DNA of 64,000 bases from Eledone cirrhosa (taxonomy: Eukaryota): assembly GCA_964016885.1 (NCBI GenBank), contig OZ024743.1:123566001-123630000 (forward strand), read 5' to 3'. This document shows, piece by piece, positions 3,049 to 51,555 of this stretch (its first letter is position 1; every line of letters starts with the position of its first letter). A program made the position numbers and the translations under genes. The notes below the pieces were generated by a model. It saw only the letters and a list, made by a program, of their open reading frames with translations, was not told the DNA's origin and made no database searches.

Positions 3049-3835
3049 CTCAGAATTTGTTGTTCTTGTTCACTGATTAACGTGTTCCCATAAATATTTA
3101 CTGTGTGGGCATTGGTAAATTCTTCCGGTAGTTCTACATCAGTCATACGGTATTGTTGATGTTAGGAGGGTATTTTTGTGAATATTCTATTTTTCTTTCT
3201 TCTAGTTTTTTCTTATTCATCCATTCTAATTTCTCATTGAAATGCCTATTGCATTCGTTTCGGGCGTATTTCGTTTCACGTCGAATGACGCTCATGAGTT
3301 GATCCCTCTCGTTTGGTGTGGTGAGATTTTGAACTTCCTTACCGTTAATGCGTTTCTGTCTGTAAAGTTCGTTAACTTTTGTGTACGTTGTTCTTTTCAT
3401 ATTAGCTGTTATTGTGTGTTTTAGTCATTCAGCTTGTGTTTTGTTTAATAATAAATTATTTACTTATATGTTTGTTGTGTATATTTTGAAGGAAACACAG
3501 TGTTTTAAGAAGCGGATTTGTTCTATTGTTATTGTAGTTTTTATATAAGTTTTTATAAATGTATATACAATGATATTAAATAAATGGAAACTATATTTAT
3601 AAAACCATATTTATTTTATTATATATGTTTCAAGGGCAACCAAGACAACATTGGTACGCTTTCATCAGATAAAATACAAAGTTTGAAATATATATAATAA
3701 AATAAATATGGTTTTATAAATATAGTTTCCATTTATTTAATATCATTGAATATTTACTCCAGTAATCTGTTTAGTGCTCTAAATCAGTTATAAACATTTA
3801 TGTTTGTCGGACTTCCAACAAATTAAATACTTCTA

Positions 3836-3840
<5 letters not shown>
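3048..3840 (-). mobile_element. PLE 5' portion: inverted pLTR + HHR-bearing pLTR + degenerate ORF N-terminus
   Basis: Minus strand IEQIRFLKHCVSFKIY...RHFNEKLEWM...VNIYGNTLISEQEQQILRK resembles the PLE N-terminal region. Inverted arms ~3568-3633 and ~3683-3748. Confidence 0.65.
3612..3676 (-). ncRNA. Minimal type I hammerhead ribozyme candidate (family A)
   Basis: tattttat-CTGATGA-aagcgtaccaa..ttggttgccctt-GAAA-catata-TA-ataaaata; 8-bp stem I. Confidence 0.65.
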
Positions 3841-3917
<77 letters not shown>

Positions 3918-3923
<6 letters not shown>

Positions 3924-4322
3924 TAACAAATGGAAACTATATTTATAAAACCATATTTATTTCATTATACATATTTCAAGGGCCACCAAAGCAAACTATG
4001 GTGCGCTTTCATCAGATAAAATATAATATAGGTTAGTTTTATAAATAAATATTGACATACCCTTAAAAAATGCAACCATTCTGGTTGGAATCTCCTGGAT
4101 AGTGGAGTTATTAGATTTATTGTTGGTTTATTATGCAAATTAGCGCACCATAGTTTGCTTTGGTGGCCCTTGAAATATGTATAATGAAATAAATATGGTT
4201 TTATAAATATAGTTTCCATTTGTTAATATATTGTATATTTACTCCAATAATTTGTTGAGTGCTTTATATCAGTTATAAAAATAATTAGCTTGTTGTATCC
4301 CAACAAATTAAATATAACCTCT

Positions 4323-4330
<8 letters not shown>
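3918..4330 (-). mobile_element. Fold-back PLE terminal fragment (family A), HHR at 3958-4023
   Basis: Inverted arms ~3918-4008 and ~4142-4232. The spacer holds CTGATGA (minus) and a HNKPTINL GIY-YIG-end-like peptide. Flanked by (TA)n. Confidence 0.7.
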
Positions 4331-4401
<71 letters not shown>

Positions 4402-4408
<7 letters not shown>

Positions 4409-4482
4409 GAGAAAAGTCATCACTAGAACAGCCGTTAAAACACCTATTTGGCTGTTCTAGTGATAAGTTTTCTCATTTGTAT
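4402..4482. repeat. Short hairpin abutting (TA)n
   Basis: aaatgagaaaagtcatcactagaacagcc / ggctgttctagtgataagttttctcattt. Confidence 0.75.
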
Positions 4483-5760
4483 ATATATTCAAATACACTC
4501 TCGCTTCGTCTCAATCAGAGATAACATTATTTTTTTTCATATATGTATGTTTATAATTCCAAATAACGGGAAATACATTAGTATAAAGTATACATGATGT
4601 AGTATATGTGGTGTTATATTTTAGCTGTATGGGTATTGTAAATATTAACATGTTTCGCTTCATTTAAGCATTTACGCATCTTCTGTAACCCATCCTATTT
4701 CTCATTTAAGTATGCCTGCCCCTTACGTGACTTACTAGTTAGTCCCTAGTACATTCTCTAATCCTCTTATACAACCTCGTGCCTGTTCTTTTCTCTCAAA
4801 CACCACTGCCCTCACTAAACCTAACCACCTTCCCTTCCATATACTGGCATTTTCATTAGTCTCATCTCCTATCGAAAGTGCTCCCTCTACGACTTTTCCT
4901 TTACCGGACAAACTGACTGTCGCTTGGATGATTGACACCTTCATGACATGTCTCCGAAACGACTCTCCTGTCTCGCCTTATTTTCCCTCGATGGATTATT
5001 CCATTCGGATTCGCGTTTCACAAGGATCCCCAAACTCTGTTTTACTGCAGGAATAAAAACTCATATTATCTTCATAAATATCCACCTATTTAGTCACAAT
5101 TCCCAACTCCATTTGTTTAATTACCTTATCTCTTCACATACTAAGAGATGCATATATACATATATAGATACACGCATATATACACACACACACCAATCTT
5201 AAGCAACCTCCATACTAATAACAGTTAAATATATAGACATCAACTCATATACATTAAGCATCCTGATATACACACATTCACACTATAAAACTACATACAC
5301 AGAAAACACACCATACTCACACCCACGCAAACAATTCAGTTCTACATTTAAGGAGTCACAACCTATGTTCCATTAGCGTACGTATTTACAATAAAGACAC
5401 ACACATGCACACACTGAGTCATGGTTATATTCACATATATCACACACTTCGCGTACACATACCGTCACACAATCACTCAGTTACATACAAACACACACAC
5501 ATGCCTACGCACTTCAACACTAATATAATGAAGAGTAATACATACGCATCAAAATATCTTCACACAGAAACATCTCAGCTCATTAAACAAATTACTTTCA
5601 AACAGTCATACAGCACACACACATTAAAGTCATACCATACATGCACGCAGCCCCTAGATAACTGCGTATTTAGATATATACGTCTATACAACGTACATGT
5701 ATCTATACAATGTACACATAGACTAAATTCACCGTCACACAAATACACAAGCCCACACAT

Positions 5761-6170
5761 AATAATTGTTTCTACTTTTGGCACAAGGCCAGCAATTATC
5801 CCAGTGTATTACTGGTACTTTATTTTATCGACCCCGTAAGGATGAAAGGCAAAGTTAACCTCGGCAGGATTTGAATTCAGATCATAAAGGGCCGTAACTC
5901 TATGCTGCAACATGTAGTGCACACGCATAATAATGATTTCTATTATACGCACAAGACCAATAAAAACATTTTTTGGGGGGGAGGGGGGAGTCGATTAAAT
6001 CAACCCCAGTGTATTACTGGTACTTTATTTTATCGACCCCCGTAAAGATGACAGGCAAAGTTAACCTCGGCGGGTTTTGAACTCAGTCCGTAAAGGGACG
6101 TAACTCTGCGCTGGAAAGCTGGAAAGCATGGCGTCCGACCCTCTACCGATTTTGCCAATCCAACGCCCTA
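5761..6170 (-). mobile_element. Two adjacent SINE copies
   Basis: Reverse complement of the SINE core at ~5761-5910 and ~5930-6170. Confidence 0.85.
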
Positions 6171-6772
6171 TGGACACGTATACCAAGAGAAACAAATAAC
6201 AATGCATACATACACACACACTTACTATTCCGTAAAAAAAGTTATCTCAGCCCACGAAAAATATCCATTTTCAAACACTCATACATCACAACTCATACAC
6301 CAAGACCATAGACATTCATACACACACACAACCTTAAGACTGCTATCAACATATACATACGTTCCAACTATGGAAATATACATATAATGGACACGCACAT
6401 AAACTGATTCATAGTTACTTCCTTTGTCACTCTTACTTTAAAAGAAACTCGTTTTCCCTTTACTCCCACATCCGGTCATTTTTCAATATGACGTGAAATA
6501 TTCTATACGTGTCACTCCACTCGTCTCTTTTAATCTATTTTTCTCTCTTCATTGCTCTCATTATATCTTTCTGGAAAAAAGCTTAAGCTCGCAATTTCCA
6601 GAAATTTTCTGACTATTTACACATATTTATCGTCTCTTTCCTGTTCTTGACCTTCCCTTGTCGTAAAAGTTGTACTTTACATAGGTAAGTATTTGCGTGG
6701 TATTATCCGTCAACGAAATTAATAAACATTCGTTGTACTGCCTCTCTGTTTTGTTCCTGTTCAAATTTTTCC

Positions 6773-6844
<72 letters not shown>

Positions 6845-6949
6845 GTATATATATATATATATACGTATGCGGTTGACAGCTACATGCATGCACACACTCA
6901 CACACACGCATACATTTGAACTGGGAACGTAAAGGGTTGTAACTTCACA

Positions 6950-7063
6950 ATCTGATTTCAAAGTCCTGCTGAGAGTCGGCTTTGCCTTTCGTCCTTGCGG
7001 GGTCGATGGAGTGAAGTTCCGGTGGTGTGCTGAGGTCGATTTGGTCAACTTACCCCTCCCCTG
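6950..7063 (+). mobile_element. Diverged SINE copy
   Basis: ctttgcctttcgtccttgcggggtcgat core. Confidence 0.6.
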
Positions 7064-7081
7064 TAATAATATATATATGAA

Positions 7082-7151
<70 letters not shown>

Positions 7152-7171
7152 TTTATATATATATATATATA

Positions 7172-7241
<70 letters not shown>

Positions 7242-7261
7242 TTTATATATATATATATATA

Positions 7262-7334
<73 letters not shown>

Positions 7335-7397
7335 GGTACGTCAAAGCTATATATATATATATAAATGGGTTACATATATATATATATATATATATAT

Positions 7398-7635
7398 AAA
7401 AGGGTACGTCAAAGCTATTTGTAAAACTGTTATATATTGTATTTTGTCTGATGAAGGCATACCATAATTTAATGTGGTATCCCTGAAATATGTATAATGA
7501 AATAAATATGGTTTTATAAATATAGTTTCCATTTATTAATATCGTATATCTACTCCAAAACTTGTCGAGTGCTTTATATCAGTTATAAAAATATTTACTT
7601 GTTGTATCCCAACAATTTTAAATAGAACTTTTGCA
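7398..7635 (+). mobile_element. PLE terminal repeat (family A), HHR at 7440-7504
   Basis: tattttgt-CTGATGA-aggcataccata/tgtggtatccct-GAAA-tatgta-TA-atgaaata; flanked by (TA)n. Confidence 0.75.
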
Positions 7636-7705
<70 letters not shown>

Positions 7706-7741
7706 ATATAGAAGTAGTTCCACAACAGTTAGTTCGCCATA

Positions 7742-7782
7742 CTGAGAACAAATGTTTCACCTTATGGGGATCCTCAGCTCGG
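7742..7782 (-). ncRNA. Minimal HHR candidate (different family)
   Basis: ccgag-CTGAGGA-tccccataaggt-GAAA-catttg-TT-ctcag; stems are weak. Confidence 0.4.
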
Positions 7783-7900
7783 TTTGACTGAAGTTATACG
7801 GAGAAGGAAAAGCAACCGTACGAATACGCAAGCGCAGAAACAGTCATTTCTTCTGGGCGAGATAAACCCACGATAGATCGGTGTAAAGGAGATAACTGTA

Positions 7901-7937
<37 letters not shown>

Positions 7938-7941
<4 letters not shown>

Positions 7942-8258
7942 GCAAAGTTTTATTTAAATTGTTGGGTTACAACGAGTAAATATTTATAACTGATATAAAA
8001 GCACTCAACAAGTATTTGGAGTATATTTACGATATTAAATAAATGGAAACTATATTTATAAAACCATATTTATTTCATTATATATATTTCAGGGATACCA
8101 CATTAAATTATGGTATGCCTTCATCAGACAAAATACAATATAAACAGTCTTATAAATAGATAGAAGAAGGCATAACATATTTTTAATATGATATCCCTGA
8201 AATATATATAATGAAATAAATATGGTTTTATAAATATAGTTTCCATTTATTTAATATC

Positions 8259-8262
<4 letters not shown>
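7938..8262 (-). mobile_element. Fold-back PLE terminal repeat (family A), HHR at 8071-8135
   Basis: Reverse complement of the 7440-7635 unit plus an inverted arm at ~8194-8260; (TA)n on both sides. Confidence 0.75.
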
Positions 8263-8336
<74 letters not shown>

Positions 8337-8338
<2 letters not shown>

Positions 8339-8763
8339 AAGGCGGGTAAAATTCCCGAGATCCATGGACGAGTTCTCTCCAGCGGTCTCTGTCCCTCATT
8401 ATCGCTGCCATATCCTGCATCTCCAACAGACCAGTGTCTGTCCTTAGGGCATCAACATATGTTAACCTTGGTCTTCCTCTTCCAGTGTGTCCATGTAGGG
8501 GCTCCCAAAGGAACACTGAGTGCAATGTCAACTCTGGATGTCGGTGAGCATGTCCAGCCAACCTCAGTCTCCTCTGTGTCACTTTTGAGCTGACTTTTGG
8601 GATGCTCCCATACAGCTCTGAGTTTTTCATCCTCAGTGTATACTGATTAATGTTCAGAGCCATCCTCAGCATTCTCGTGTAGCACCCATCCACCATCTGA
8701 GTGAGTTTCCTGGTCAGTGTCCAAGTCTCAGACCCGTACAGCAGCACAGACTCCACTACAGCA
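8337..8763 (-). mobile_element. RTE-group LINE, 5'-truncated C-terminal fragment in (TA)n
   Basis: ESVLLYGSETWTLT, RRLRLAGHAHRH, GRGRPRLTYVD, MRDRDRWRELV; the stop codon runs directly into (TA)n. Confidence 0.85.
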
Positions 8764-11673: not shown

Positions 11674-11985
11674 ATATATTACCCGCCTTAGAATATATAT
11701 ATATTGTTTTAATATAGATGAGATTCTACAGGACTAGAACTGTTTCATTCTTTAGAAATCATCATATATATATATATATATAACTATGTACACGTACATA
11801 GATATATGTATACAGACGTACAGTAGTATGTATATATATATACATACATGCACACATATATATATGTACGTATGGATTCACCGAACATTTATTATAATAC
11901 TCGGTGTGTTTGTAAACAAACATCCCGTATTAAGCCGTAGTGTCCAGCAACCATCGTTGCTCGTTTGTTCAACACTGACAAAGGA

Positions 11986-12028
11986 ACGCTGTACTAGTTT
12001 CAAGCTTATTAGCTATCGTCAGCAACGT
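11986..12028 (-). ncRNA. Minimal type I hammerhead ribozyme
   Basis: acgttg-CTGACGA-t agct aata agct t-GAAA-ctag-TA-cagcgt; 6-bp stem I, palindromic stem III ACTAGT. Confidence 0.8.
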
Positions 12029-12403
12029 ATACCTTCCTGCCAGATTGTTGAACGTATATACTTACCTTATGCATATTAACGGCTGAGAAGCCCAATTTGC
12101 ATATCGAATGGGTTCATCGGCCGGGTGCACCGAAAACTATAAACGGAAAAAATGAAACGAAATTTCATTTCCCACTCTTAGTACGGCTGTTACTTAAATA
12201 TAAGTATGTACACGTACATACATATATGTATACAGACGTACAGTAGTATGTATATATATACATACATGCACACATATATATATGTACGTATGGATTCACC
12301 GAACATTTATTATAATACTCGGTGTGTTTGTAAACAAACATCCCGTATTAAGCCGTAGTGTCCAGCAACCATCGTTGCTCGTTTGTTCAACACTGACAAA
12401 GGA

Positions 12404-12446
12404 ACGCTGTACTAGTTTCAAGCTTATTAGCTATCGTCAGCAACGT
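12404..12446 (-). ncRNA. Minimal type I hammerhead ribozyme (second unit)
   Basis: Identical to 11986-12028, 418 bp away. Confidence 0.8.
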
Positions 12447-12810
12447 ATACCTTCCTGCCAGATTGTTGAACGTATATACTTACCTTATGCATATTAACGG
12501 CTGAGAAGCCCAATTTGCATATCGAATGGGTTCATCGGCCGGGTGCACCGAAAACTATAAACGGAAAAAATGAAACGAAATTTCATTTCCCACTCTTAGT
12601 ACGGCTGTTACTTAAATATAAGTATGTACACGTACATACATATATGTATACAGACGTACAGTAGTATGTATATATATACATACATGCACACATATATATA
12701 TGTACGTATGGATTCACCGAACATTTATTATAATGCTCGGTGTGTTTGTAAACAAACATCCCGTATTAAGCCGTAGTGTACAGCAACCATCGTTGCTCGT
12801 TTGTTCAAAA

Positions 12811-24033: not shown

Positions 24034-24123
24034 TAGATAAATATATATAGGCAGACAGGCAGATAGATAGATTGATAGTTAGATAGATAAATAGACAGAC
24101 AGACATATATATATATATATTTT

Positions 24124-24213
24124 ATTAATAGTTTTATTTTCATATACCTGTATGTAAACTCCCCATTTGTATTTGTACCCTTCTTTTGTGCCCTTGTGGC
24201 TAATAAAGAAATT

Positions 24214-24300
<87 letters not shown>

Positions 24301-24663
24301 TTCTTTATTAGCCACAAGGGCACAAAAGAAGGGTACAAATACAAATGGGGAGTTTACATACAGGTATATGAAAATAAAACTATTAATACAATAACAAATA
24401 ACAATTGAAATCCCCAATAGGGGGGAGGTGTTACACAGGGGTTGTACACACCCCGAAAAAATATACAACCCTCATCTCCAGGAGCACCAAGAGTGAGTAC
24501 TCCCTTCCTCTCTTCCTCTTTTTCCTCAACTTACAGGCTTATATAGAGAGAAGGCCCAACCACTCGGGCCATCTTTGCCACATTCACCCACCTTTTATAA
24601 AATTTGCTGGGGTACAGCACCCACCTCTCTCTTCATCCTGACACTTCTTCCAAAATGATATTT
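24124..24663 (-). mobile_element. Tx1 3' fragment (24297-24663) with an inverted copy of its last ~90 bp (24124-24214)
   Basis: Minus strand encodes RWVNVAKMARVVGPSLYISL and the 3' end cttgtggctaataaagaaat; the two ends meet across (CT)n(TA)n(AG)n. Confidence 0.85.
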
Positions 24664-25309
24664 ATAGATACCGGTAGAAACGAAAGGTTCCAACGCGTCA
24701 GAAATACATACGTAATTTAATTGCATTGTAAATTGTGTAAATATTCCACACATTTTCTTGTAGTATATTTGAGACCCGTTCTTCCTATTTAATGTACATA
24801 GATAAGCGGTCATAGTTCCGATATCCTTTTAAAGCGTTGTACACTTCGAATCTGTGATTAAATATCACAAGTAGATCAACTAAGATTGTATAGTCTAGGT
24901 GCATATGTCTTCAATGTAACTCTTCGCATGTATTCAAGTGCCGCAATTGTTATATCTTTTCTTTTTTTCACAATCTTTCTGCGACAGGTATTATTTCTTG
25001 TTGATATATAAAGTAACCATTTCGTTCCTTTGTCCATTCCAGATTGATCTCCATACCAAACAGCTGAGGTGTCAATAACTGCCATACTTGTATGGTGAAA
25101 CGAATAATTATCTTTAGTTCAACAGCAGCTGAGGAGGAGAATAAACCCCCCAAACATCTAGCTGAACCACGAGCTACTTGCAATCAATAATGCATATGTC
25201 CTTTGCGTGGTATATCTGAGTTTCATTTTTTCTGGGTTTGTTTAATTATCAAAGGTATAAAGCCATAGCACATTCTTAAATTCTCAATGATTAAATATAT
25301 CGTTTAGAT

Positions 25310-32767: not shown

Positions 32768-32984
32768 GAATGCTATGGTTGACGGAGGCTCGGCTCTGTA
32801 AGGTATTGTAAATTTTGACCGCTATAACAATTGTAAATTGTTTAAAACTTTAACCAACTTGTAGACAAAAACACCCTCCTCCTCGTGAGAGGGGTTTTTC
32901 TGCCCGTTATTTGACCTTTCGGGGTTAAATAACTGCTTATTGGGGTTTTGTGCCCAATATTTATTTTAAACAAAAAAAAACAAC

Positions 32985-34962
32985 ATGGCTACGAAAAAGA
33001 ATTTTCATAGGTCACTCCCACTCATTCCGTCTTCTTCTTCCTCAATTGTCACTACAGCAGAGAGAAGATTGTCTCTCTCCCTCCCTTCTTTAAATGTGTC
33101 TCTCCCCCCCCCCCTTCTCTTTCGCAAGCGACGACAGAAAAGAAAAGTCTCGTGCAAAGCGTGCAAGATTTCTCCACGACGACGACGGCAACAACGAAAC
33201 AGGTGTGCGGGAAATACGAAAACCCATTTCATTCGTCTGACGTCAGGAATAATAGCAGTAGCAGCCGTAATAACAACAGCAACAGTGACAATGAAAACAA
33301 CAGTAGCAGCCGCAACAGCATCAGCAGCAGCATAAACAACAACAGCATTATCAGCAGCAACAACAACAACAACCACAGCAACAGCGGCGGCGGCAGTAGT
33401 CGTAGTACCTGCAGCAACAACAAAAGTAACAGCAGCTCTGACGACAACAACAACAACAACAACAGCAAAGAAAAACCAATCTCGTTTGCAGGTATCGCGA
33501 AGAACCTGGAAACCATCCTCATAACAAATGAGAAATTAGAGGAAGCGAAGAAAATGGTGACAAAAACTGGACACCGAGCAATTTGCAAGGCAGCGGAAAA
33601 TTTTTTCGAAACCCAACAGCACTGTACGGTCACGTACCGTACAGTAAGTACAAAATCCCGTAGGGTTGAAAGAGCGACAGAGGCTCAAATACAAAAAGCC
33701 TTGGGGTCTGTGTGGCAGCGGAAAACGCACATCACCCGAGGCAAGAAATATGCCACCGTAGACGTACTTTTTGCCACACCCCAGGAGGCAAAGGCTCAAT
33801 CCTTAGTGACCCTAAGGAGCGAGGAAATGGTGTTGGTGCCCTCCTACTGCGGGCAAAACATTGTGAGGGTCAAACTGACCCACGCCCCCCCCCCCCCCCC
33901 CCCCCCCCCGGGATGGCCCCTTCTTGGCTGACCGCGTCTGTCCTCGTCGGAATCGAGGACAAAACAACTGTACTGCAAGTACAGAAAAAAGTAAGAGAAG
34001 ATTGGATCGGCACCTCCATTGAGATGTTAATCCAAACCAACCAGGAGTGCATCGAAGCTATTCCGGATGTGATAGACTTCGATAACGGCACTCAACTGCC
34101 CATAAGTATTGAGGGCAAACGCCCGAAATGCTTTTGCTGTGGATCGAAGACTCACCTCAGGGCCTTCTGCAACGAGAAGACCCTGAGAAAGGAGAAAACC
34201 CCCCTCCTTCCGAAACCGGCTCCACGGCTACCAGCAACAGGACAAGCGGCAACCAGGAACGATAGGTCCGTGGCACCCATACCCACGCCACGGAAATCAA
34301 AAACAGCAGCAGCAGTGGAAGTATTAACAACAACAACAGCAATACCAAATGCAGCTGCAACAGAGACTCCAGTGCAAACATCACCAACAACAAGTGAAAG
34401 AGTGGAGCTGGTACCCCTCCCCGACCTCACAGAATCAGACATGGAGTGTGAGGTGGGAGGGGGATGGCAAAAGGTCGTAAGAAGGCACAAACGCAGAAGT
34501 AGCGCATCGTCGCCTTTGAAAAGGGAGGAAAGAAATGAAAAAAGGGTAAAGTCTACTGCAAAGAGACTCACAGCAGCAACACCACCAACACCATCACAAC
34601 CCACACTAGCACCACCATCACCACCGGCGACAACCCCACCGCCAACAATACATTCAACACCACCACCACAAGCACCAACATCGCAAACACAACAACAAAA
34701 CACACACACCCAGCAACAACGACAAGAAAATAGCAGAACCACACGGCACCCCCAGAAAAACAAATGCACGGCAATAAATACACACAAGAAACTAATGACT
34801 TACATAATTGAACACACATACATTTCACAACACGACTACATAATACCAGCAACAATCAAAACGCCAACTAACATAAGACTGCTAAAAATAGCACAGAAAC
34901 AATACACAAACATTAAAACGAAATTCCCCAACGCAGTTGGTGATTTCAGAGACCAAGGGTAA
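32985..34962 (+). CDS. Tx1 ORF1 (gag-like, CCHC zinc knuckle), two frameshifts at C homopolymers
   Basis: Joined from ORFs 32985, 33152 and 33712; CFCCGSKTHLRAFC = CX2CX4HX4C; GGGWQKVVRRHKRR basic motif. Confidence 0.75.
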
Positions 34963-35137
34963 CTATCAACCGAAGAGTATATTCGGACATATTCATAGAA
35001 GAGCCGACGACCAGCCGAAGGGATGATTCAACGGTCCCTTCACCAGACGATCAAGTGAAAAGGGACGGAAAAACCATCCCTCCTCTACGAAAAGTACGGT
35101 AAGTGGTCTTTCCCATCTTTTCCACTCTATTTTAAAC

Positions 35138-38100
35138 ATGACCTCACTCAGAATAGGCAGCATAAATGCGCGTGGCTTGGGGTCGTCATGGAAGCAGGGT
35201 CACCTGCTCAACGCCCTCAGGTCACTAAACATAGATGTAGTGGCCATCAGCGAGACCAGAATCTCCAAAGCACGGGCCTTCGCATCGATCTTTGGCGGCT
35301 ACGATGTGTACGCATCTCCCAGCCGTCCTGGATCGGGGGGAGGAGTTGCTGTGCTTTTTCGGAGAGGTTTGGATCTCGCCATACGGGCCATCTTCCTGGA
35401 CCCAGAGGGTAAGCTGGTGGTGCTGGACGTGACCAGCGGAGACGAGCAAGCTTTCAGGCTAGTGGCCGTCTATGCCCCGACAGGAGCAGGGCGGCCTGAT
35501 TTCTTCCGGCGTCTGGAGACCTTTCTTGGAACGTCCCGCTCTTTAGTGTTAGTGGGCGACTGGAACGGGATCTTAGATGCACGCTGGGACTGTGTGGGAT
35601 TAGCGGATAGGGGTGGAGGGTGCAAGAGCCTCACCAACCTGCTCAGGCGTTTTGAACTGTCTGACAGGTACCGATTGGATTTCCCGAATGTGCCAATGTG
35701 GACTTGGACAAATCGTATAGGGTCATACAGATCATATCTAGATAGAGTATTTTGTAGGGAAATAGATAGGTCTAGCATAGGCTGTCCACAATTCAAGATA
35801 GTCAGCTACACGGACCACAAATTCGTGATCTGTGTGCTTGACTTAGATAGGCTTCATAGACGAGGACCCGGCTACTGGAAGCTAAACGCGTCCTTACCAG
35901 CGCGCAAGGCCTACAGAGACCCGATTAGCGAACTAGTTAAGCGGGCGTTGACGGGGGCCATCGTCAACAACAAGTGGTGGTTTGCTCTGAAAAGAGCGAT
36001 TAGAATAGAATCGATTAGGCTTAGTAAGGCTTTAGCAATAGAGAAAAATAGAGCAGAGGGAGAACTAGTTAGAAAATTAGACGAGGCGCTTAGCAAAGGC
36101 ATTGCGACCGACGTGCTTGCGGCGAAATTGGCCCTTAACCAATTCTTCAATGCAGAGCACGAAGGTTGCGTTGTCAGAGCAAGGGTGCGTGCTCTCAGAC
36201 ACGAGGGGACGAAAGCCGTTCAATGGGCCCGAGTGGCGGAGGCGCGTCGTGGCAACAAAGCCACGATCCGGTCTTTGGTGGACCACGACGGGCGCATGCT
36301 ACTCGATCCCGGGCAAATGTGTGAAGCTTTTCAGCGACACTTCGCTCAACTGTTCGGGGGCAGTGGTGGGCCGGGTCGAGGGATGGACTTTAGTGTCTAC
36401 CTCGACGGACTGCCGCGGCTCTCGGCCACTGAGGCGAGGTGTTGCGAAAAGCCGATAACAGCCGCTGAAGTAAGGGAGGCAATGACTGGCTGCACAAGGG
36501 GTAAATCGCCTGGTTTGGATGGTCTGCCCTATGAACTTTACGTACAGATGCTAGACTTGTTCGGAGGCCTCTTGGCAGACGTCTACTGCAACTGGCAAAA
36601 GAACGGGAGAATTCCCAGTTCTGTGAGCCGAGGAGCGGTGGCACTGCTGAGAAAGGATCCGAACAAGGGGGATAACATAGATAATTTCCGGCCCATAACT
36701 CTGCTAAACACAGAGTTCAAGATTTTGGCCAAGGTGCTAGCAAAGAGGTTGGCGCTTGTCATTGGTGGTCTGGTGGGAGAGGCGCAGACATGCGCCATTC
36801 CCGACAGATCCATCCACGACAACCTCCACCTAATGCGATACATCGTAGACAGGGTAGCTAGGAAACCTGGCACGGGTGGGTCCTTGATCAATTTAGATCA
36901 GTCGAAAGCTTTCGATAGGGTCGACCATCGTTACCTAGCGGCAGTCCTGAGGGCGGCTGGCTTTGGACCCGTCTTCAGAGGCTGGATCGCTGCCATGCAC
37001 AGCGACATCTGCTCTGTGGTGAGAGTGAACGGTCACCTGTCGGAACCGTTCAACATCATGCGCTCGGTCTTCCAAGGATGTTCCCTCTCGTCCCTCTTGT
37101 ACGTATTGACTCTCGAGCCATTACTGCACAAACTGGAGACGTTGAGGGGCGTCCCGCGCGAACTAGGATGCGGAAGATCCGCGTCAGCATATGTGGACGA
37201 TGTCACCGTAGTGGTGTCGAACGCCAAACACATCGAGGCGATCGGCACTACACTAAGAGAATACGAAGCGGTGACAGGAGCAATGATCAACCAGGAAAAG
37301 TCAGTCGGCCTGCAGCTCGGCACCTGGAGAGGCAGGCGATGCCGTCCAACAGCGTCGTCGGACGCTGGACGGACGGACCGGTTAAATTGCTAGGGGTCAG
37401 GTTCGGTCCGGACCTCCAGACGGACAAAAACTGGGACGAGGTGACGAGCAGGGTGGCTTCTCTCACCCAGAAATGGGCGGAGAGGAAGCTATCCCTGAAA
37501 GGTCGAGCGGAGGTGGCTAACGCGTACATCGCGTCTGTCATCTGCTACCGCCTGACCGTCGTACTTTGTCCTAAGCCTCGCCTGACTGCGCTGGAGCGTT
37601 TGCTCTTTCGCTTTTTGTGGAAGGGCCGCGCTCCGATGGTCAGGCGGTCCATCTGTTGTCAACACCCGCTACGTGGGGGGGATGGGCATGCCGTGGCTGA
37701 TGATGCGCAGGCACGCGCTCAGGCTACGACATCTCCACCTCTTCCTCGACGGTGATCAGGTGTGGTCGCCGTTTGCTAGACACGTATTTCCCCAGCTCGT
37801 TTCCTTGACGGAGCTGCAGTCCTGGGTCAAGCGAAGACCGAGAGGGGGCGCCTGGAGACTGGAATGTCTTCAGGCGCTCACAGCCCTCGACCAATCGGGC
37901 AATGTGATCGGTGGAAACTCCACCTCGGCGTTCTATAGAGGATTAGTGGAGGGGAAGAGCGACGACGGACTTGGGGAAACTCTAGGCGTCGACGAAAATC
38001 AACTAGCCAATCTCTACGGAAGAACTTTCGGGCCAGGGCCTATGGACAACTTCCAGAAATCTCTGGCCTGGCAGTGCTACCGAGGAGCCTTGCCAGTTCG

Positions 38101-38557
38101 GGATAAACTCTACAGGCATGGAGGTGCCGTCAACCGGGCATGTCCGAGATGCGCGCAGGGCGACGAAACCGTCCTGCACGCACTTGTCCAGTGTCCGAAA
38201 ATTACTGACTTGTGGGTTTATGTCGAACACCTGCTGTCGCGTGTAGGACGGATCCGGCTATCATCTGAGTCCATCGTGAGGATTGCCCCGCCCTCTTCCT
38301 TTAGCCAGGAAGGGCAGGCAGTTTTTATCTGTCTGGTGGCCATGGCGAAAGAGATAGTATGGTGGACACGTTTGAAAGGACTGAAGACGAGCACTTACCT
38401 CTTCGGTGATGCCCTGATTGACTTTTTCAAATTTCATTTGAAAAGGAAAATCAGAGTAGAGAGGGAAGTGCTCTCTTCCCAGCATTTTGTTGAAAGATGG
38501 GTGAGAGAAGCAAGAATGGCCCGAGTGAATGGGCCTACTCTGTGTATATATCTGTAA
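35138..38557 (+). CDS. Tx1 ORF2 (APE endonuclease + RT + C-terminal zinc finger), two frameshifts
   Basis: SINARGL, SET, VYAP, GDWN, SYLDRVF, TDH; GKSPGLDGLP, NFRPITLLN, DQSKAFDRVDH, QGCSLS, YVDD; CPRC...ETVLHALVQC. Frameshifts near 37335 and 37680. Confidence 0.92.
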
Positions 38558-38850
38558 ATTAAAGGTGGAAAACTGGGAGAGGGCACTTGCCTTGGTGGTC
38601 AGGGTCACTGTGACCTTTTACTGGGCTTTCTCCACAAATGTCCCTCCGAAGTCTCCCCCCTATTGGGGAATTTTTCATTGTTATTTTTTGTTACAGCCTC
38701 TGTTTTTGTTTTTTACACGCAGAAATGCCCATTTGTACCGTCCTGTATTGTCCTGCACTGTCCTTAATGTCTACTTTATGTAAACCCTTGTGGTTAATAA
38801 AGAAATCATTATTATTATTATTATTATTATTATTACTGAGAGGTTCCTCC

Positions 38851-42230: not shown

Positions 42231-43050
<820 letters not shown>

Positions 43051-43533: not shown

Positions 43534-44003
43534 ATATATACATGCATACATACATGCATACATACATATATGTAAATATAAGGTTGATTAAAATTCATTG
43601 TTCAATCAACGTTCTAGCTGAAATAGTTCTGTAATTATTTAGATATACATACTTTCCGACGATTTAGAACTGTAAATTCTTATTGTGGATTGATTGCAGC
43701 GTCAACCGGAATATGTTACCTGTGTGATTTTATGATGATAATTAAATATAGAATATTTTATATAATATTGATAGATAGATAGAGGGAGAGAGACAGACTG
43801 GTAGAGAGAGAGAGAGAGATTGCTGGATAGACAGATAAGTAGATCAATAGATAGATAGATAGATAGATAGATAGAGGGAGAGAGAGAGAGAGAGAGAAAG
43901 AGACAGAGAGAGATAGTTAGATAGATAGATAGAGAGATAGAGAGATAGAGTGCGAGAGAGAGAGACATTGCTGGGTAGGTAGACAGACAAGTAGATCAAT
44001 AGT

Positions 44004-44086
<83 letters not shown>

Positions 44087-44088
<2 letters not shown>

Positions 44089-46440
44089 TTCTTTATTAGC
44101 CACAAGGGCGCAACAAGAAAGGGGACAATACAAAGACATGCCGGGGATTTTACATACAGTCGTGTAAAAAATATAAAAACAAACAATTTCAACAATCGAA
44201 ATCCCCAATAGGGGGGAGGCGCCACAAATGGGTTGTTTAATACCCCGTCGATAGAACAACCCTCAACTCAAGGAGCGTGTTGTGCAAGTGCTCCTTTCTT
44301 CCTTTTGCTCTCTTCCTCAACCTACAGGCTTATAAACAGAGAAGGCCCAATCACTCGGGCCATTTTCGCTTCATTCACCCACCTTTCAGTAAATTTACTG
44401 GGGTGCAGTGCCTCTCTCTCCACCCTGATTCTCCTTCTAAAGTGATACTTAAAGAATGGAATCAATTGTTGTCCGGAGAGAAAGGCATCTGTCCTCAGTC
44501 CTCTCAACCTCGTCCACCATATAACTTCTTTCACCATAGCCACCGTACAGAGGAAAACCGCCTCTCTTTCGTTTTTGAAAGAGTCTGGCGGTTTGATCCT
44601 TACTATGGACTCGGCAGTCAACTGTATTTGTCCCATACGCGACAGCAGTTGTTCTGCATAGTTCCACAGGTCGCTTACGCCCGGGCAGTGTACAATTGCG
44701 TGCAGAACTGTTTCAATGTCCTGCGCACATCTTGGACACGTCCTCTTGGAAGGATCCCTGCCAGGGCGTCCGTGCCTGTAGATCTTGTCACGAACCGGTA
44801 GAGCTCCTCGGTAGCACTGCCAGGCCAGGGACCTCTGGAAGTTGTCCATAGGTCCCGGGCGGAAAGTCCTACCAAACATACTGGTGAGCTCATCGTCTTC
44901 GACGCCCAGAGTCTCTCCGAGCACGTCGTCGCCCTTGTAACGTACAATCCCTCTATAGAATGTCGAAGTGGAGTCTCCACTGATTGCTGCGCCCGCTTGC
45001 CAGAGGACTGTGAGCGCCTGAGCGCATTCAATGTGCCAGGCGCCCATCGTTTTCGGTCTTTTCTTCACCCAGGACTGCAGCTCCGTTAGCGAGACGAGCT
45101 GTGGGAAAGCCTGTCTCACAAACGGTGCCCACACCGGTTGGGGGTCGGTGAGGAATACCTGGAGATGCCGCAGCCTCAGCGCATGTTTGCGCATCATCAG
45201 CCACGGCATTCCCAGCCCTCCGTTGGAAGGGTGCTGACAGCAGACGGATCTCCTCACCAGCGGAGCCTGCTTCTTCCACAGAAACTGGAAGAGCATGCGT
45301 TCCATCTTGGCGAGGTGTTCACGGGGACAAGGCACGACAGTCAAGCGGTAGTAGATGACGGACGCTATGAAAGTGTTCGCCACCTCCGCTCGACCTTTCA
45401 AGGACAGTTTGCACTCTGCCCACTTCTGAGTGAGTGCAAACACCTTGGCCGTGACCTCGTTCCAGTTTTTCTCCACCTGGAGGTCTGGACCGAACCAGAC
45501 CCCGAGCAATTTCACCGGTCCGTCCGTCCAGCGTCCAACGACGCTGTCGGATGTCATCGGTTTGCCTCTCCACGTACCGAGTTGCAAACCGACAGACTTG
45601 TCTGGGTTTAGTTTTGCTCCCGTCAGCGTTTCGTATTCTTTCAGTATGTTGCCGATCACCCCGATTTCCGAGGTGCTCGACACCATTACTGTCACGTCGT
45701 CGGCATAAGCCGACGCCGCTTTGCGCAGTCCCGGTTCTAGGGGGATGCCCTGCAACAGCTCCAATTTCCGCAGTAGTGGCTCTAGAGTCAATACATACAG
45801 AATGGAGGAGAGAGGGCATCCCTGTCGAATGGAACGCGTGATTGCGAACGGCTCCGATAGGTAGCCGTTCACCTTGACCCTCGAGCAGATGCTGGTGTGC
45901 ATCGCCTCGATCCATCCTCTGAACACGGGACCGAAACCGGCCGCCTTGAGAACCGCTTCCAAGTATCGATGGTCGACCCTATCGAATGCCTTAGACTGAT
46001 CCAAGTTGATCAGAGCCGGGTTTACTACCGAAGCCGGGTTTACTACCCACCCTCTCTATGATGTATCGCATGAGGTGGAGGTTGTCGTGTATGGACCTGG
46101 TCGGGATTGCACACGTTTGCGCTTTCCCTACCAGGTTCTCGACGACAAGCGCCAACCTCGTCGCGAGCACCTTGGCCAAAATCTTTAACTCTGTGTTGAG
46201 CAGAGTTATGGGCCTGAAGTTGTTAATTTCGTCCCCCTTGTTCTCGTCTTTCCTGATCAGCGTTACTACGCCCTTGCCTGCAGAACTGGGAATTCTCCCG
46301 TTCTGCTGCCAATTGCAGTAGACGGCTTCGAGGACGCCAGAGAACAAGTCCGGCATGCCTATGTAAAATTCGTAGGGTAGACCATCTAGACCGGGTGACT
46401 TGCGTTTCCCGCAGCGGCCCAGAGCGTCCCGTATCTCAGT
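44087..46440 (-). mobile_element. Tx1 LINE copy E1, 5'-truncated, in (GATA)n
   Basis: RT to C-terminus (QGCPLS, YADD, CPRC); a small duplication near 46020 causes a frameshift; (GATA)n on both sides. Confidence 0.93.
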
Positions 46441-46520
<80 letters not shown>

Positions 46521-49347
46521 TGTTTCTTTTATTTGCCACCAGGGCATCAAAAGTGGGACAAGTACAATGGGGGAGATTTACAAAACAAGGCGTCCTCAAT
46601 AAGGGGGAGGCAATAACAATATATAAAAATAAAATAAAATATAACAAAAAATAAAATTTATAACAAAGTCCTCAATAGAGAGGAGGCGCCTTGGGGGGTC
46701 GCGCACACCCCCGAAAAAAGTGTGCAACCCTTCTCCTCAGGAGCACAGAGAAGGGGTGCTCCCTTGGTCTTTGATCTTCCTCACCTATAGTCTGATGTAG
46801 AGTGAAGGCCCATTCACACGGGCCATTCTCGCCACTTTCACCCATCTTTCATAGAAACGGCTGGGGGGCAGCACCTCTCTCTCCATCCTGATCCTTCTTC
46901 CGAAATGATATCGGAAGAAACGGACCAGTTGTTGGCCAGAGAGAAAGGTGTCTGACCTCAGTCCTTTCAGACGCGTCCACCATACAACCTCTTTCGCCAT
47001 GGCTATTACGCACAGAAACACCGCCTCTCCTTCGTTTTTGAAGAGGGGAGGCGGCTTGATCGTTACAATAGACTCGGTGGTCAACCGGATCGGTCCCACC
47101 CTTGACAGCAGTTGTTCGACATAGCCCCACAGATCGGCAATGCCCGAGCAGTGTACCAATGCGTGTGCAACGGTTTCCTCGTCGCACACGCATCTGGGAC
47201 AGACCTTTTTTGATGGCTCCCTACCCGGGCGCCCGTGTCTGTAGAGCCTTTCTCGAACGGGCAGAGCCCTTCTGTAGCATTGCCAGGCCAGGGACCTCTG
47301 GAAGTTATCCATGGGTCCCGGGCTGAATGTCCTACCGAACAGGTTGGCCAGTTCGTCTTCCTCCATGCCTAGGGCTTCTCCGAGGGCGTCGTCGCACCTG
47401 CTAACCACCAGCCCTCTATAGAATGACGAGGTGGATTCTCCACTGACAGCCGGGTCCGCCTGCCAGAGAGCCGTGAGCGCCTGGGCACACTCGGTGTGCC
47501 AGGCGCCCAGTTTTCTCGGTCTTTGCTTGACCCAGGATTGCAGCTCGGTGAGTGAGACGAGTCTGGGAAAGGCTCGCCTCACAAACGGGGCCCACACCGG
47601 TTGACCGGAGAGGAATACCTGAAGGTGCCGTAGCCTTAATGCGTGTTTACGTATCATCAGCCAGGGCATCCCCAGCCCTCCTTTCGAAGGGTGTTGACAG
47701 CAGATGGATCTCCTCACCATAGGAGCCCGCTTCTTCCAAAGGAATTGGAAGAGTGCGCGCTCCATTTTGGTGAGCGTTTCCCTTGGGCAAGGCACCACGG
47801 TCAGGCGGTAGTAGATGACGGACGCTATATAAGTGTTCGCCACCTCCGCCCGACCTTTCAGGGACAGTTTGCACTCGGCCCACTTCTGGGTCAGTGCAAA
47901 CACCCTGCTCGTCACCTCACCCCAGTTCTTCTCCACCTGGAGGTCTGGTCCGAACCAGACCCCGAGCAATTTCACCGGGCCCTCCGTCCAGCGCCCGACG
48001 ACGCCATCGGAGGGCATCGATCTGCCCCTCCACGTGCCGAGTTGCAGACCGATCGACTTGTCCCGGTTCAGCTTAGCCCCTGTAAACCTTTCGTACTCCT
48101 CCAGTAAGGTGCCGATCGCCCCGATTTCCGAGGCCGTCGACACCATTACTGTTACGTCATCGGCGTAGGCTGACACCGCTTTCCGCAATCCCGGTTCCAA
48201 CGGGATGCCCTGCAACAACTCCAATTTCCGCAGCAGTGGCTCTAGAGTCACTACATACAGAAGGGAGGAGAGAGGGCACCCCTGTCGGATGGACCGCGCG
48301 ATTTCGAACGGCTCCGAGAGGTAGCCGTTCACCTTGACCCTAGAGCAGATGCGGCTGCTGTGCATGGCATTGATCCAGCCCCTGAAAACGGGTCCGAAGC
48401 CTGCCGCCGCTAGCACCAGGTAACCATGGTCGACCCTATCGAATGCCTTAGATTGATCCAAGTTGATCAGGGCCCCACCAAAGCTGGGTTCGTTCCCAAC
48501 CCTCTCTATGATGTATCGCATGGGGTAGAGGTTATCGTGGATGGACCTGGACGGGATAGCACATGTCTGCGCATCTCCCACCAGGTTGCCCACGACAAGC
48601 GCCAACCTCTTTGTTAGCACCTTGGCCAAAATCTGTAACTCTGTATTTAGCAGAGTTATGGGCCTGACATTATTTATATCGTCCCCCTTGTTATCGTCCT
48701 TCCTCACTAGCGTGACTACGCCCTTGGTCACAGCACAGGGAATTCTCCCGTTCTGTCGCCAGTTGCAGTAGACCGCCTCGAGGAGTTCGGGGAACAAGTC
48801 CGGCATAGCTAGATATAGTTCGTATGGAAGACCATCGAGACCCGGGGATTTGCGTTTGCCGCATTGGCTCAGAACGTCCTCTATCTCAGCGGCTGAAATC
48901 GGCTCCTCGCAGGACTTCGCCTCCCTGTCCGAGAGACGCGGCAGGCCGTCGAGGTATGGACCGAAGTCCACGTCCCCAACCGGCACCCCGCCCCTTCCGA
49001 ACAATTCGGCAAAGTGCTTTTGAAAAGCCTCGCACATCTGCTTAGGTTCAAGGATCACCCGTCCATCCTGGTCTCGCAAAGACCGGATAGTGGATCTGCT
49101 CCCTCTTTTGGCTTCTGTCACGCGGACCCAGCTAACAGCTTTGGTCCCCTCGTTTCCCAGAGCACGTATTTTGCTTCGGACGATGCAGCCTTCGTGTTTC
49201 GCGTCGAAGAACTGGCCCAGGGCCGTTCTCGACGCTAGCACTCTGGCCACGTCGCCGCTTCTAATTGCCTCTTCTACACTATCTACCAATTCCCTTTCCT
49301 TCCTATTTCTATTGGAGGCTAACTCCTTACTAAATTCTATAGAGACT

Positions 49348-49349
<2 letters not shown>
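46521..49349 (-). mobile_element. Tx1 LINE copy E2, 5'-truncated, in (GATA)n
   Basis: Uninterrupted 834-aa ORF 46785-49289 with complete RT and zinc finger. Confidence 0.93.
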
Positions 49350-49403
<54 letters not shown>

Positions 49404-49404
<1 letters not shown>

Positions 49405-50270
49405 TTTTTTATTTACCATAAAGGCATAAAAAGAAGGGACAAATACAAAGGGGGAGTTTACATACAATCGAGTAAAAAGGGTATAAAATGAAAATAATCG
49501 AAAACAACCTCAAAAGGGAGGGGACGTGATGGGGGTTGCACACACCCCCGAAAAAGTGTGCAATCCTTTGCCCGGGGAGCACATGGAGAAGGTGCTGCCT
49601 TCTCCTTCACTTCTTTACCTACAGGATGGTATACAGAGAAGGCCCATTTACACGAGCCATTCTCGGCACTATCACCCACCTTTCATAAAACTGCCTGTGG
49701 CCAAGCACCTCTCTCTCCATTCTTATCCTTCTTCCGAAGTGATATCGGAAGAAGTAGACCAGACTATGGCCAGAGAGGAAGTTGCCTGACCTCAGACCTT
49801 TCAATCGTGTCCACCAAACAACCTCTTTCAACATGGCTATTACGCACAGAAAAACCGCCTTTGCTTCCTTTGTGAAGAGGGGAGGCGGTTTGATTGTCAT
49901 CACGGACTCGTCGGTCAATTGAATCGGCGCCACCCGCGACAGCAGTCGTTCGGCGTAGCCCCACAGATCAGCCACGCCCGGACATTGCACCAATGCGTGC
50001 GCAACGGTTTCTTCGTGACGCACGCATCTATGGCAAATCTTTTTCGAGGGATCCCTGCCCGGGCGCCCGTGTCTGTAGAGCCTCTCTCGAACGGGTAGAG
50101 CCCCCCGGTAGCACTGCCAGGCTAGTGACTTCTGGAAGTTGTCCATTGGTCCCGGGCCGAAAGTCCTACCGAACAGGCTGGCCAGTTCGTCCTCTTCCAT
50201 GTCCAGCGACTCTCCAAGGGTGTCATCGCCCCTGCTAGCCACCAGCCCTCTATAGAATGATGAGGTGGTT
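49404..50270 (-). mobile_element. Tx1 LINE copy E3, 5'-truncated, in (GATA)n
   Basis: ORF2 C-terminus (MDNFQKSLAWQCYRGALPV, CHRC) plus 3'UTR. Confidence 0.92.
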
Positions 50271-50332
<62 letters not shown>

Positions 50333-50333
50333 T

Positions 50334-50830
50334 ATTTCTTTATTAGCCACAGGGGCACAAAAGAAGGGGACAAATACAAAGGGGGAAGTTTACATACAAT
50401 AAAAACGTGTAAAATGTTATCACAGATGGAATTTAAAAGTTAGTCGATTTTCCCCAATAGAGGGAGACAGTTTATATGGGTAACACAGACCCCCGAAAAA
50501 AATGTGCAACCCTCATCTCCAGGAGTACGAAGAGCTTGTACTCCTTTCCTCTCCTCCTCCTTTTCCTCAACCTACAGGCTGATATAGAGAGAAGGCCCAT
50601 TCACTCGGGCCATTCTCGCCACTTTCACCCACCTTTCATAAAACTTGCTGGGGTACAGCACCTCTCTCTCCATCCTGATTCTTCTTCCAAAGTGGTATTT
50701 GAAAAAAAGAATCAGTTGTTGGCCGGAGAGAAAGGTGTCTGACCTCAGCCCTTTCAACCTTGTCCACCATACAACCTCTTTCGCCATAGCTATCACACAA
50801 AGGAAAACCGCCTCTCCTTGGTTTTTGAAG
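50334..50830 (-). mobile_element. Tx1 LINE copy E4, 5'-truncated, in (GATA)n
   Basis: Last ~85 aa of ORF2 plus 3'UTR; short gatagatagatag at 50831. Confidence 0.9.
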
Positions 50831-51259
50831 GATAGATAGATAGTTGACATACACACATAACCTTCAAATGCCACATTTTACTCATTCAGAAGATAAGAAA
50901 TTTAATACAAAGGTGTTCAATAAATAATTTAACAACGGCTATGTGTAAAGTAGAAGAAAAATTGAAGAAGCATCAATATACGAATTAAAGTTAATATATG
51001 TGTTTTTCCTTTACTCCATTATATATAGTATATTACATTATAATATTAATGGGACAGCCAATAAGGCAATATTTTTGTCAATTGAGCTAGTTATTATTGC
51101 AAAAGCGAACTTCACCGCCCTATTACAAAAGAGTTGTACTCTAACATAATTACGCAATATGGAGCGTTGCAAAATGCACCAAGTAAAAAATTTTAACTCT
51201 AATGGCCGTTTTTATTGTAGTTTGTGTGAATAAATTTCTTTAATATACAGTTAGAAAAT

Positions 51260-51555
51260 GTAATGGACAAAAATAGAGATTTAGTCTCATTCTCACTAAT
51301 TACCCGAACTTGCTCTGTCAGGCTATCAACTTTTTAGATCCTTGCATTTCTTGCGCGAGAAGCAATTCCCGAATTATGAAGAGTTTATAAACAATATAGA
51401 TGTGTTTTTGTCTGGAAACCCAAAGAATCTTTTTCTCCAAGATAGCAAAAACTTACCTAATAGATGGGATTACGTCATCGAAAATGGAGGAAAATATTAC
51501 CATGATTGAATATGTCAACTATTATTAAATAAAATTTACTTTCTTATCCGAATAG
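51260..51555 (+). pseudogene. Mariner transposase C-terminal remnant
   Basis: LPELALSGYQLFRSL (~SPDLAPSDYHLFRSL) and LPNRWDYVIENGGKY. Confidence 0.7.

Follow-up and report, generated by a model that had tools for sequence, protein, structure and literature searches.

The window analysed here, a 64-kb stretch of the Eledone cirrhosa genome (assembly GCA_964016885.1, contig OZ024743.1, positions 123,566,001 to 123,630,000), contains a stack of four copies of long interspersed nuclear elements (LINEs), E1 to E4, separated from one another by (GATA)n arrays that read as (TATC)n in the orientation of the elements (Table 1). Sequence reading together with a repeat scan placed all four on the minus strand, with a 5' truncation point that differs from copy to copy; coordinates and strand agree with a first-pass annotation, made from the sequence alone, that had described a co-oriented stack of differently truncated Tx1 insertions. 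The separators had been described as pure (GATA)n, which is correct for the runs of 20, 13 and 15 units but not for the array at 44006-44085, in which 12 GATA units are followed by one AATA and 7 further units. Runs of at least three GATA units occur nine times in the whole window, all within 43770-50842, and none was found on the other strand. The length of the (TATC)3 that closes the stack on its 5' side would be compatible with one target-site duplication.

The pairwise nucleotide identity of E1-E4, a check proposed in the first-pass annotation, is 70-82%, each copy belonging to its own subfamily. Pfam domains RVT_1 and zf-RVT were detected in E1 and E2 and zf-RVT in E3, while none of the four retains an endonuclease domain. 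Their 3' ends have an AATAAA inside the terminus and no poly(A), and are followed by two bases and TATC. A single contig of single-copy depth (50802-51500) spans the 5' junction of E4 in each of three public runs, which represent one sample that is possibly the source of the assembly itself. No record spanning the repeats of the stack was found over 43560-51500 in the three contig sets of this sample or in one run of restriction-site-associated DNA sequencing (RAD-seq).

Table 1. Features of the stack and related elements, in window coordinates (RT, reverse transcriptase; UTR, untranslated region)
Feature	Position	Strand	Description
Compound microsatellite	43770..44005	.	Degenerate (GATA/GAGA/GACA), older; stack lies at its edge (sequence read and scan)
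(TATC)n	44006..44085	-	19 units, one interruption, 3' of E1; target repeat
E1	44088..46440	-	5'-truncated LINE copy, 2,353 bp, spans RT to 3' UTR; frameshifted once near 46,030
(TATC)20	46441..46520	-	Separates 3' end of E2 from 5' end of E1
E2	46521..49349	-	5'-truncated LINE copy, 2,829 bp; RVT_1 and zf-RVT in an open frame of 854 aa
(TATC)13	49350..49401	-	Separates 3' end of E3 from 5' end of E2
E3	49404..50270	-	5'-truncated LINE copy, 867 bp; extends from zf-RVT to 3' UTR
(TATC)15	50273..50332	-	Separates 3' end of E4 from 5' end of E3
E4	50333..50830	-	5'-truncated LINE copy, 498 bp
(TATC)3	50831..50843	-	5' edge of stack, adjoining unique DNA
F	32768..38805	+	Near full-length sister-lineage copy, 6.04 kb, between (ATT)19 and (ATT)9; frameshifted
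G	24300..24668	-	Short copy of a fifth, older TATC-type subfamily, E4-related; exceptionally beside (TC)n in an inverted duplication

Subfamilies and relatives of the stacked copies

For every subfamily, searching the 3.0-Gb genome (1,796 contigs) with the 3' UTR gave an initial set of 512-1,479 candidates, from which 40 were scored and 30 retrieved; longer flanking stretches were taken around 82 sampled copies, and 5' ends were mapped against one natural full-length copy per subfamily. The main sample comprises 149 TATC-type copies (30 of E1, 32 of E2, 28 of E3, 30 of E4 and 29 of G); copies of the window itself and a single segmental duplicate are excluded, and three adjacent pairs of E4 copies are kept. 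In these pairs (L146/L147, L154/L155 and L164/L165) the two copies have an identical 5' truncation point and are tandem duplicates of one insertion, possibly formed by recombination between flanking repeats.

Full-length copies exist elsewhere in the genome for E1 (5,817 bp), E2 (5,734 bp), E3 (5,837 bp) and E4 (5,843 bp), to which their counterparts in the window show identities of 99.2%, 98.0%, 99.0% and 99.8%, respectively. Set against the much lower identity among E1-E4 themselves, these values mark the four as independent insertions. In the full-length copies of each subfamily, open reading frame (ORF) 2 is intact, with ca. 1,145 aa, an N-terminal Exo_endo_phos domain corresponding to an apurinic/apyrimidinic endonuclease (APE) with intact motifs, RVT_1 and a C-terminal zf-RVT. 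ORF1 reaches 582-638 aa with a CCHC knuckle in E2, E3 and E4. The E lineage is thus an APE-type retrotransposon of the L1 group without long terminal repeats (non-LTR), having two ORFs, 5' truncation and target-site duplication.

The best solved relative of the E ORF2 is the human L1 ORF2p (E value 8e-46). Against vertebrate proteins, among them zebrafish pol-like BAC82609.1 and proteins named YTX2 (an automatic name given by the source), the E2 ORF2 reaches 277-356 bits, versus 159 bits against human L1 ORF2p. In a FastTree analysis of the RT region (47 rows, human L1 and curated Tx1, Kibi or Koshi sequences not being among them), the five TATC-type subfamilies form one clade (SH support 100) nested in an octopod clade with F and an Argonauta sequence (SH 100), the nearest named protein being that of Argonauta hians (66% identical). 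Unnamed relatives of 40-45% identity join the octopod clade on one branch (SH 100), distinct from the group of sampled vertebrate proteins (SH 99), to which this branch is only loosely linked (SH 92). The lineage is therefore probably Tx1-like, resembling the Tx1-like proteins of vertebrates more than human L1 but placed on a separate branch. The Tx1 label of the first-pass annotation is supported by score and tree to this extent, the comparison being one with automatically named proteins. Cluster look-ups gave no curated Tx1 name among the closest relatives of 40-45% identity, a structure search with the APE domain alone did not recover a LINE endonuclease, and a search of the ESM Atlas matched only unnamed APE-RT clusters.

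Insertion sites and stacking across the genome

Sampled copies end in AATAAAGAAA plus a dinucleotide typical of the subfamily (TC in 30/30 E1 copies, CA in 31/32 E2 copies and TA in 29/30 E4 copies), immediately followed by TATC. The tetramer at positions +3 to +6, after the terminal dinucleotide, is TATC in 132 of the 149 copies, TATA in 8, AATA in 6 and another in 3, while TATC accounts for 0.45% of positions in the background, taken from 58 evenly spaced 10-kb blocks. Across the whole genome there are 10,527 instances of an exact 20-nt 3' end common to E1, E4, G and related forms, which does not cover E2 and E3; NN-TATC comes next in 9,183 of them (87%). All nine TATC-type 3' ends inside the 58 blocks are likewise followed by NN-TATC. 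The insertion site is a short consensus, TC/TATC(T), for which a long array is not necessary, and AATA, TATA and TATT sites are also used (15/149 copies). One E2 copy (L036) lies at a TATC unit inside a long (TACC)n array, as does the 5' flank of another (L038).

The repeat is also found at the other end of the elements. Two TATC units occur within ca. 30 nt of the 5' junction in 76 of the 115 5'-truncated copies, versus none (0/115) in the opposite, GATA, orientation and a background per orientation of 0.36% of 33-nt windows in the same blocks; among full-length copies, 24/26 have TATC repeats on their 5' side. Non-periodic duplications of at least 10 bp that begin exactly at TATC (+3) were found in 50 of the 141 copies with a closed 5' end, compared with 97 of 2,820 shuffled pairings, and TC lies to the left of the site in 40 of these 50. 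The duplications measure ca. 10-20 bp (median 17 bp, a figure slightly inflated by an overlap of at most 6 nt with the element). Since they start exactly at TATC, the repeat is the target and not a tail. Where at most one TATC unit precedes unique DNA, that unique string is repeated at the 5' junction (for example in L007, L044, L124, L184 and L210), indicating that no repeat tail was added. The earlier proposal that each insertion regenerates its target is borne out in that target-site duplications leave the target on both sides.

Stacking is not restricted to the window. A relative lies within 150 bp of 79 of the 149 copies, and 98 of the 99 contacts are co-oriented, with subfamilies freely mixed; none of the 99 involves the ATT lineage described below. 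Among the first 100 ends listed on one contig (C1), 18 of 99 gaps are of 8 kb or less, compared with 1.6 expected, and the same strand is used in 18/18 of these close pairs versus 42/81 distant pairs. Mixed stacks of two or three copies occur in 3 of the 58 random blocks, and 3.2% of the 580 kb they represent matches the lineage or more distant relatives. The survey of 3' ends, flanks and orientation thus agrees with the first-pass annotation, which had proposed repeated, strand-specific insertion into (ATCT)n by several subfamilies; neither the 5' flanks nor the orientation of the copies turned out to be random.

The near full-length F copy of the window encodes an ORF1 with a CCHC knuckle, APE, RT and zf-RVT, and belongs to a sister lineage associated with another repeat. 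In 26 of 29 sampled F copies, ATTA or ATTC is found at +3, and TATC repeats occur on neither side in any of them; genome-wide, NN-ATT follows 9,049 of 9,671 exact F ends (94%). Three of the 29 lie in (TTC)n, where the 3' junction reads TC-ATT-CTT. All 9 full-length F copies have (ATT)n at their 5' end (two of them with a (TTC)n 3' flank) versus 4/17 truncated ones, which suggests that the RNA brings repeat sequence with it at its 5' end; full-length E3 copies have no 5' repeat beyond the duplication. The neighbours of F were F in 8/8 contacts, some of which are internal rearrangements.

The endonucleases of E1-E4 are 64-80% identical to one another and 58-61% identical to that of F, the corresponding RT values being 84-90% and 73-76%. 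At 32 endonuclease positions E1-E4 share a residue that differs in F; the APE alignment also held four non-APE G frames, which added gaps, and columns were compared without them. One of these positions is just before the catalytic YLDR motif, in a stretch which we take by homology to be the betaB6-betaB5 loop. According to the accessible part of PMC1950540, the isolated Tx1L endonuclease is sequence-specific in vitro, and grafting this loop shifts L1 specificity only partly, so that the loop need not be the target determinant.

Several further observations concern F. A recurrent GC-rich sequence that starts near the 3' end of F in four flanks (L221, L082, L095 and L228) looks like the head of a tRNA-type short interspersed nuclear element (SINE) in or beside the ATT run. 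The same internal break, located ca. 3.7 kb from the 3' end, recurs in four copies (L218, L222, L226 and L268), which points to the spread of a rearranged variant of F. An apparent strand bias (39 of the 41 top matches on the minus strand) proved to be an artefact of ranking, exact counts being balanced (4,969 forward and 4,702 reverse).

Finally, a near-perfect palindrome at 24120-24390 consists of the last ca. 90 bp of a LINE copy in inverted duplication on either side of (TC)n(TA)n(AG)n, which either a repair event or the assembly could have produced. The G copy at 24300 had raised the possibility of a TC-specific, Kibi-like subfamily, which was ruled out by the presence of TATC in 27 of 29 relatives. 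Other repeats of the window comprise a 418-bp unit in 2.5 tandem copies (11778-12808, 99%), a 223-bp unit in 2 tandem copies (42583-43025, 81%) and, at 3500-8400, a short repeat with 14-mer ends flagged by Tandem Repeats Finder (TRF), which occurs at least 7 times beside (TA)n in both orientations and is possibly a small (TA)n-associated element.

Origin of the stack

These data are best explained, with a probability of about 0.8, by four independent insertions from four young subfamilies of one Tx1-like lineage, likely by means of an APE endonuclease that prefers TC/TATC(T) on one strand, so that targeting would be determined by the endonuclease. Following the established scheme of target-primed reverse transcription, this enzyme would nick the GATA strand at GATA^GA; reverse transcription would be primed at the nick from the 3' end of the RNA, with frequent early stops resulting in 5' truncation, and a second nick 10-20 bp away would lead to duplication of the target, whose units may then be lengthened by slippage. 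Each insertion would offer two landing sites to the next, one per side, and the asymmetry of the repeat would make later copies all face the same way without interrupting each other.

Several points weigh against this explanation. The 3' junction has a non-TATC tetramer in 17/149 copies, a pair of TATC units is missing from the 5' side of 39/115 truncated copies, and 91/141 copies gave no resolvable non-periodic duplication, many of these lying in pure repeats, where none can be resolved, and some being apparently blunt or rearranged. In the random blocks, only 4 of the 13 arrays of at least four TATC units adjoin an element, which leaves the target unsaturated. The sample consists of the best matches to each 3' UTR, which biases it to young copies, and some neighbouring matches (the three E4 pairs) were counted separately. 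No empty-site allele was seen in the contig sets or the RAD-seq run, which held no repeat-spanning record. In addition, a short RNA extension that pairs in the first register only would leave no trace in the junction tests.

This last point leads to the strongest of the alternatives, though still an unlikely one, in which the target is picked mainly by RNA-DNA pairing: the transcript would read through into the downstream repeat, and its UAUC (or AUU) units would anneal where an endonuclease of lower specificity has nicked the DNA. Such pairing would be in keeping with the polyadenylation-like signal AATAAA, which is located 4-6 nt before the element ends, and with the lack of an inserted poly(A), with the (ATT)n found at the start of every full-length F copy, two (TTC)n sites included, and with the TC-ATT-CTT junctions of F. 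Pairing in variable registers would be expected to add units at the 3' side, yet among 37 sites at which the departure from the repeat could be located on both sides (ca. 22 with short and hence informative targets), the 3' run was longer than that of the 5' copy only once. Moreover, 6/30 E1 copies deviate at the first base (AATA), and this base is present in the 5' duplicate where resolved. As there is no excess of 3' units, any guide at the 3' end is limited to a few bases in the first register.

Much less probable is that the GATA runs are tails made by the elements, in the style of RTE or CR1, with copies landing in or beside old tails or being passively retained there. Microsatellite 3' ends are indeed common in RTE LINEs, octopus included (PMC9115989, accessible part), and within stacks many 5' TATC runs are the 3' flank of the preceding copy. 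The duplications, above all the unique strings shared by both junctions at sites with at most one unit, largely refute tails, and passive retention accords neither with the lack of opposite-orientation 5' flanks nor with the separate stacks of the TATC and ATT lineages. Lastly, tandem duplication of one element followed by divergence, an assembly artefact or an origin of the stack as part of a segmental duplication has almost no likelihood despite the head-to-tail co-orientation and the near-identical E4 pairs of the sample: the identities to dispersed subfamilies and the 5' junction motif of E2, which occurs once in the genome, exclude both a diverged tandem duplication and a duplicated block, and mixed stacks recur in the random blocks.

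Implications and known systems

The GATA target and the octopod host extend a known behaviour, the choice of microsatellites by Tx1 families, which has been recognised since 2004. A wider reading, to which we would give slightly less than an even chance, is that a cephalopod Tx1-like lineage acquired its microsatellite targeting separately from the families of fish and crocodilians and diverged into orthogonal (GATA)n and (ATT)n systems through changes in endonucleases that are now ca. 60% identical, each system seeding its own landing pads. If true, at least five co-active subfamilies would share and multiply one repeat, building non-nested, co-oriented arrays that occupy a few percent of the genome; element 5' ends would adjoin the repeat directly, with possible co-transcription from the latter; GATA would be an addition to the targets of APE retrotransposons; and E and F together would represent a natural swap experiment on the reading of microsatellites by APE. 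The two sister lineages provide, in one genome, ca. 10,000 exact 3' ends each, several intact or nearly intact ORF2s and fidelities of 87% and 94%, and since they use different repeats and differ at the 32 endonuclease positions, the determinant is directly testable. The lineage and its relatives (ca. 3% of random DNA) account for part of the microsatellite-linked repeat architecture of octopods, in which GATA markers call for caution as they often sit at LINE junctions.

Microsatellite-specific non-LTR retrotransposons are also found outside Tx1, Waldo and Mino belonging to the R1 clade and Dong to R4. In the accessible portions of the papers, to which the statements that follow refer, Waldo is assigned to (ACAY)n, Mino to (AC)n and Dong to (TAA)n (PMC3812793), and the NeSL-related Togen to (TG)n (PMC4640811); Dong thus shares the ATT/TAA repeat of F, but all four are in clades other than that of the E lineage and none is on GATA. 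Closer parallels are Kibi and Koshi, inserted in (TC)n and (TTC)n of teleosts, and the crocodilian Tx1 families found in (TTCC)n or (TTTC)n (PMC4494074, PMC3812793). Like these, and in line with the target preference of many Tx1 members, E and F are Tx1-like APE LINEs in which related families use different microsatellites. They differ in their targets, (TATC)n and (ATT)n not being listed for those families, in their octopod host, in copy numbers above 10,000 and in an ORF2 only ca. 29% identical to the fish proteins sampled and placed on its own fully supported branch. No GATA-specific Tx1 family was found in the searchable literature, a scope outside which Repbase/Dfam and subscription papers fall. 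According to a review, the mechanism by which APE-type retrotransposons target microsatellites is poorly understood (PMC3812793).

As to the arrays, non-autonomous Mutator-like elements (MULEs) form SaTar arrays in guayule and rice (PMC5907723), and tandem insertions of SINEU-3 have been described (PMC4494074); in both, as here, different elements are arranged in linear, non-nested order through repeated insertion in a regenerated target. Unlike SaTars, which consist of DNA transposons, the E stack is made of autonomous LINE subfamilies and is strictly co-oriented. In octopus repeat papers (PMC13282606 with one supplement, PMC8967140 and PMC9115989), L1-Tx1 elements are reported as abundant and active, the portions available making no mention of target sites or GATA. 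Octopus vulgaris has 80 L1-Tx1 families covering 56 Mb, 13 of them recently active (PMC13282606), and these resemble the E and F lineages in abundance and recent activity and may include families of both.

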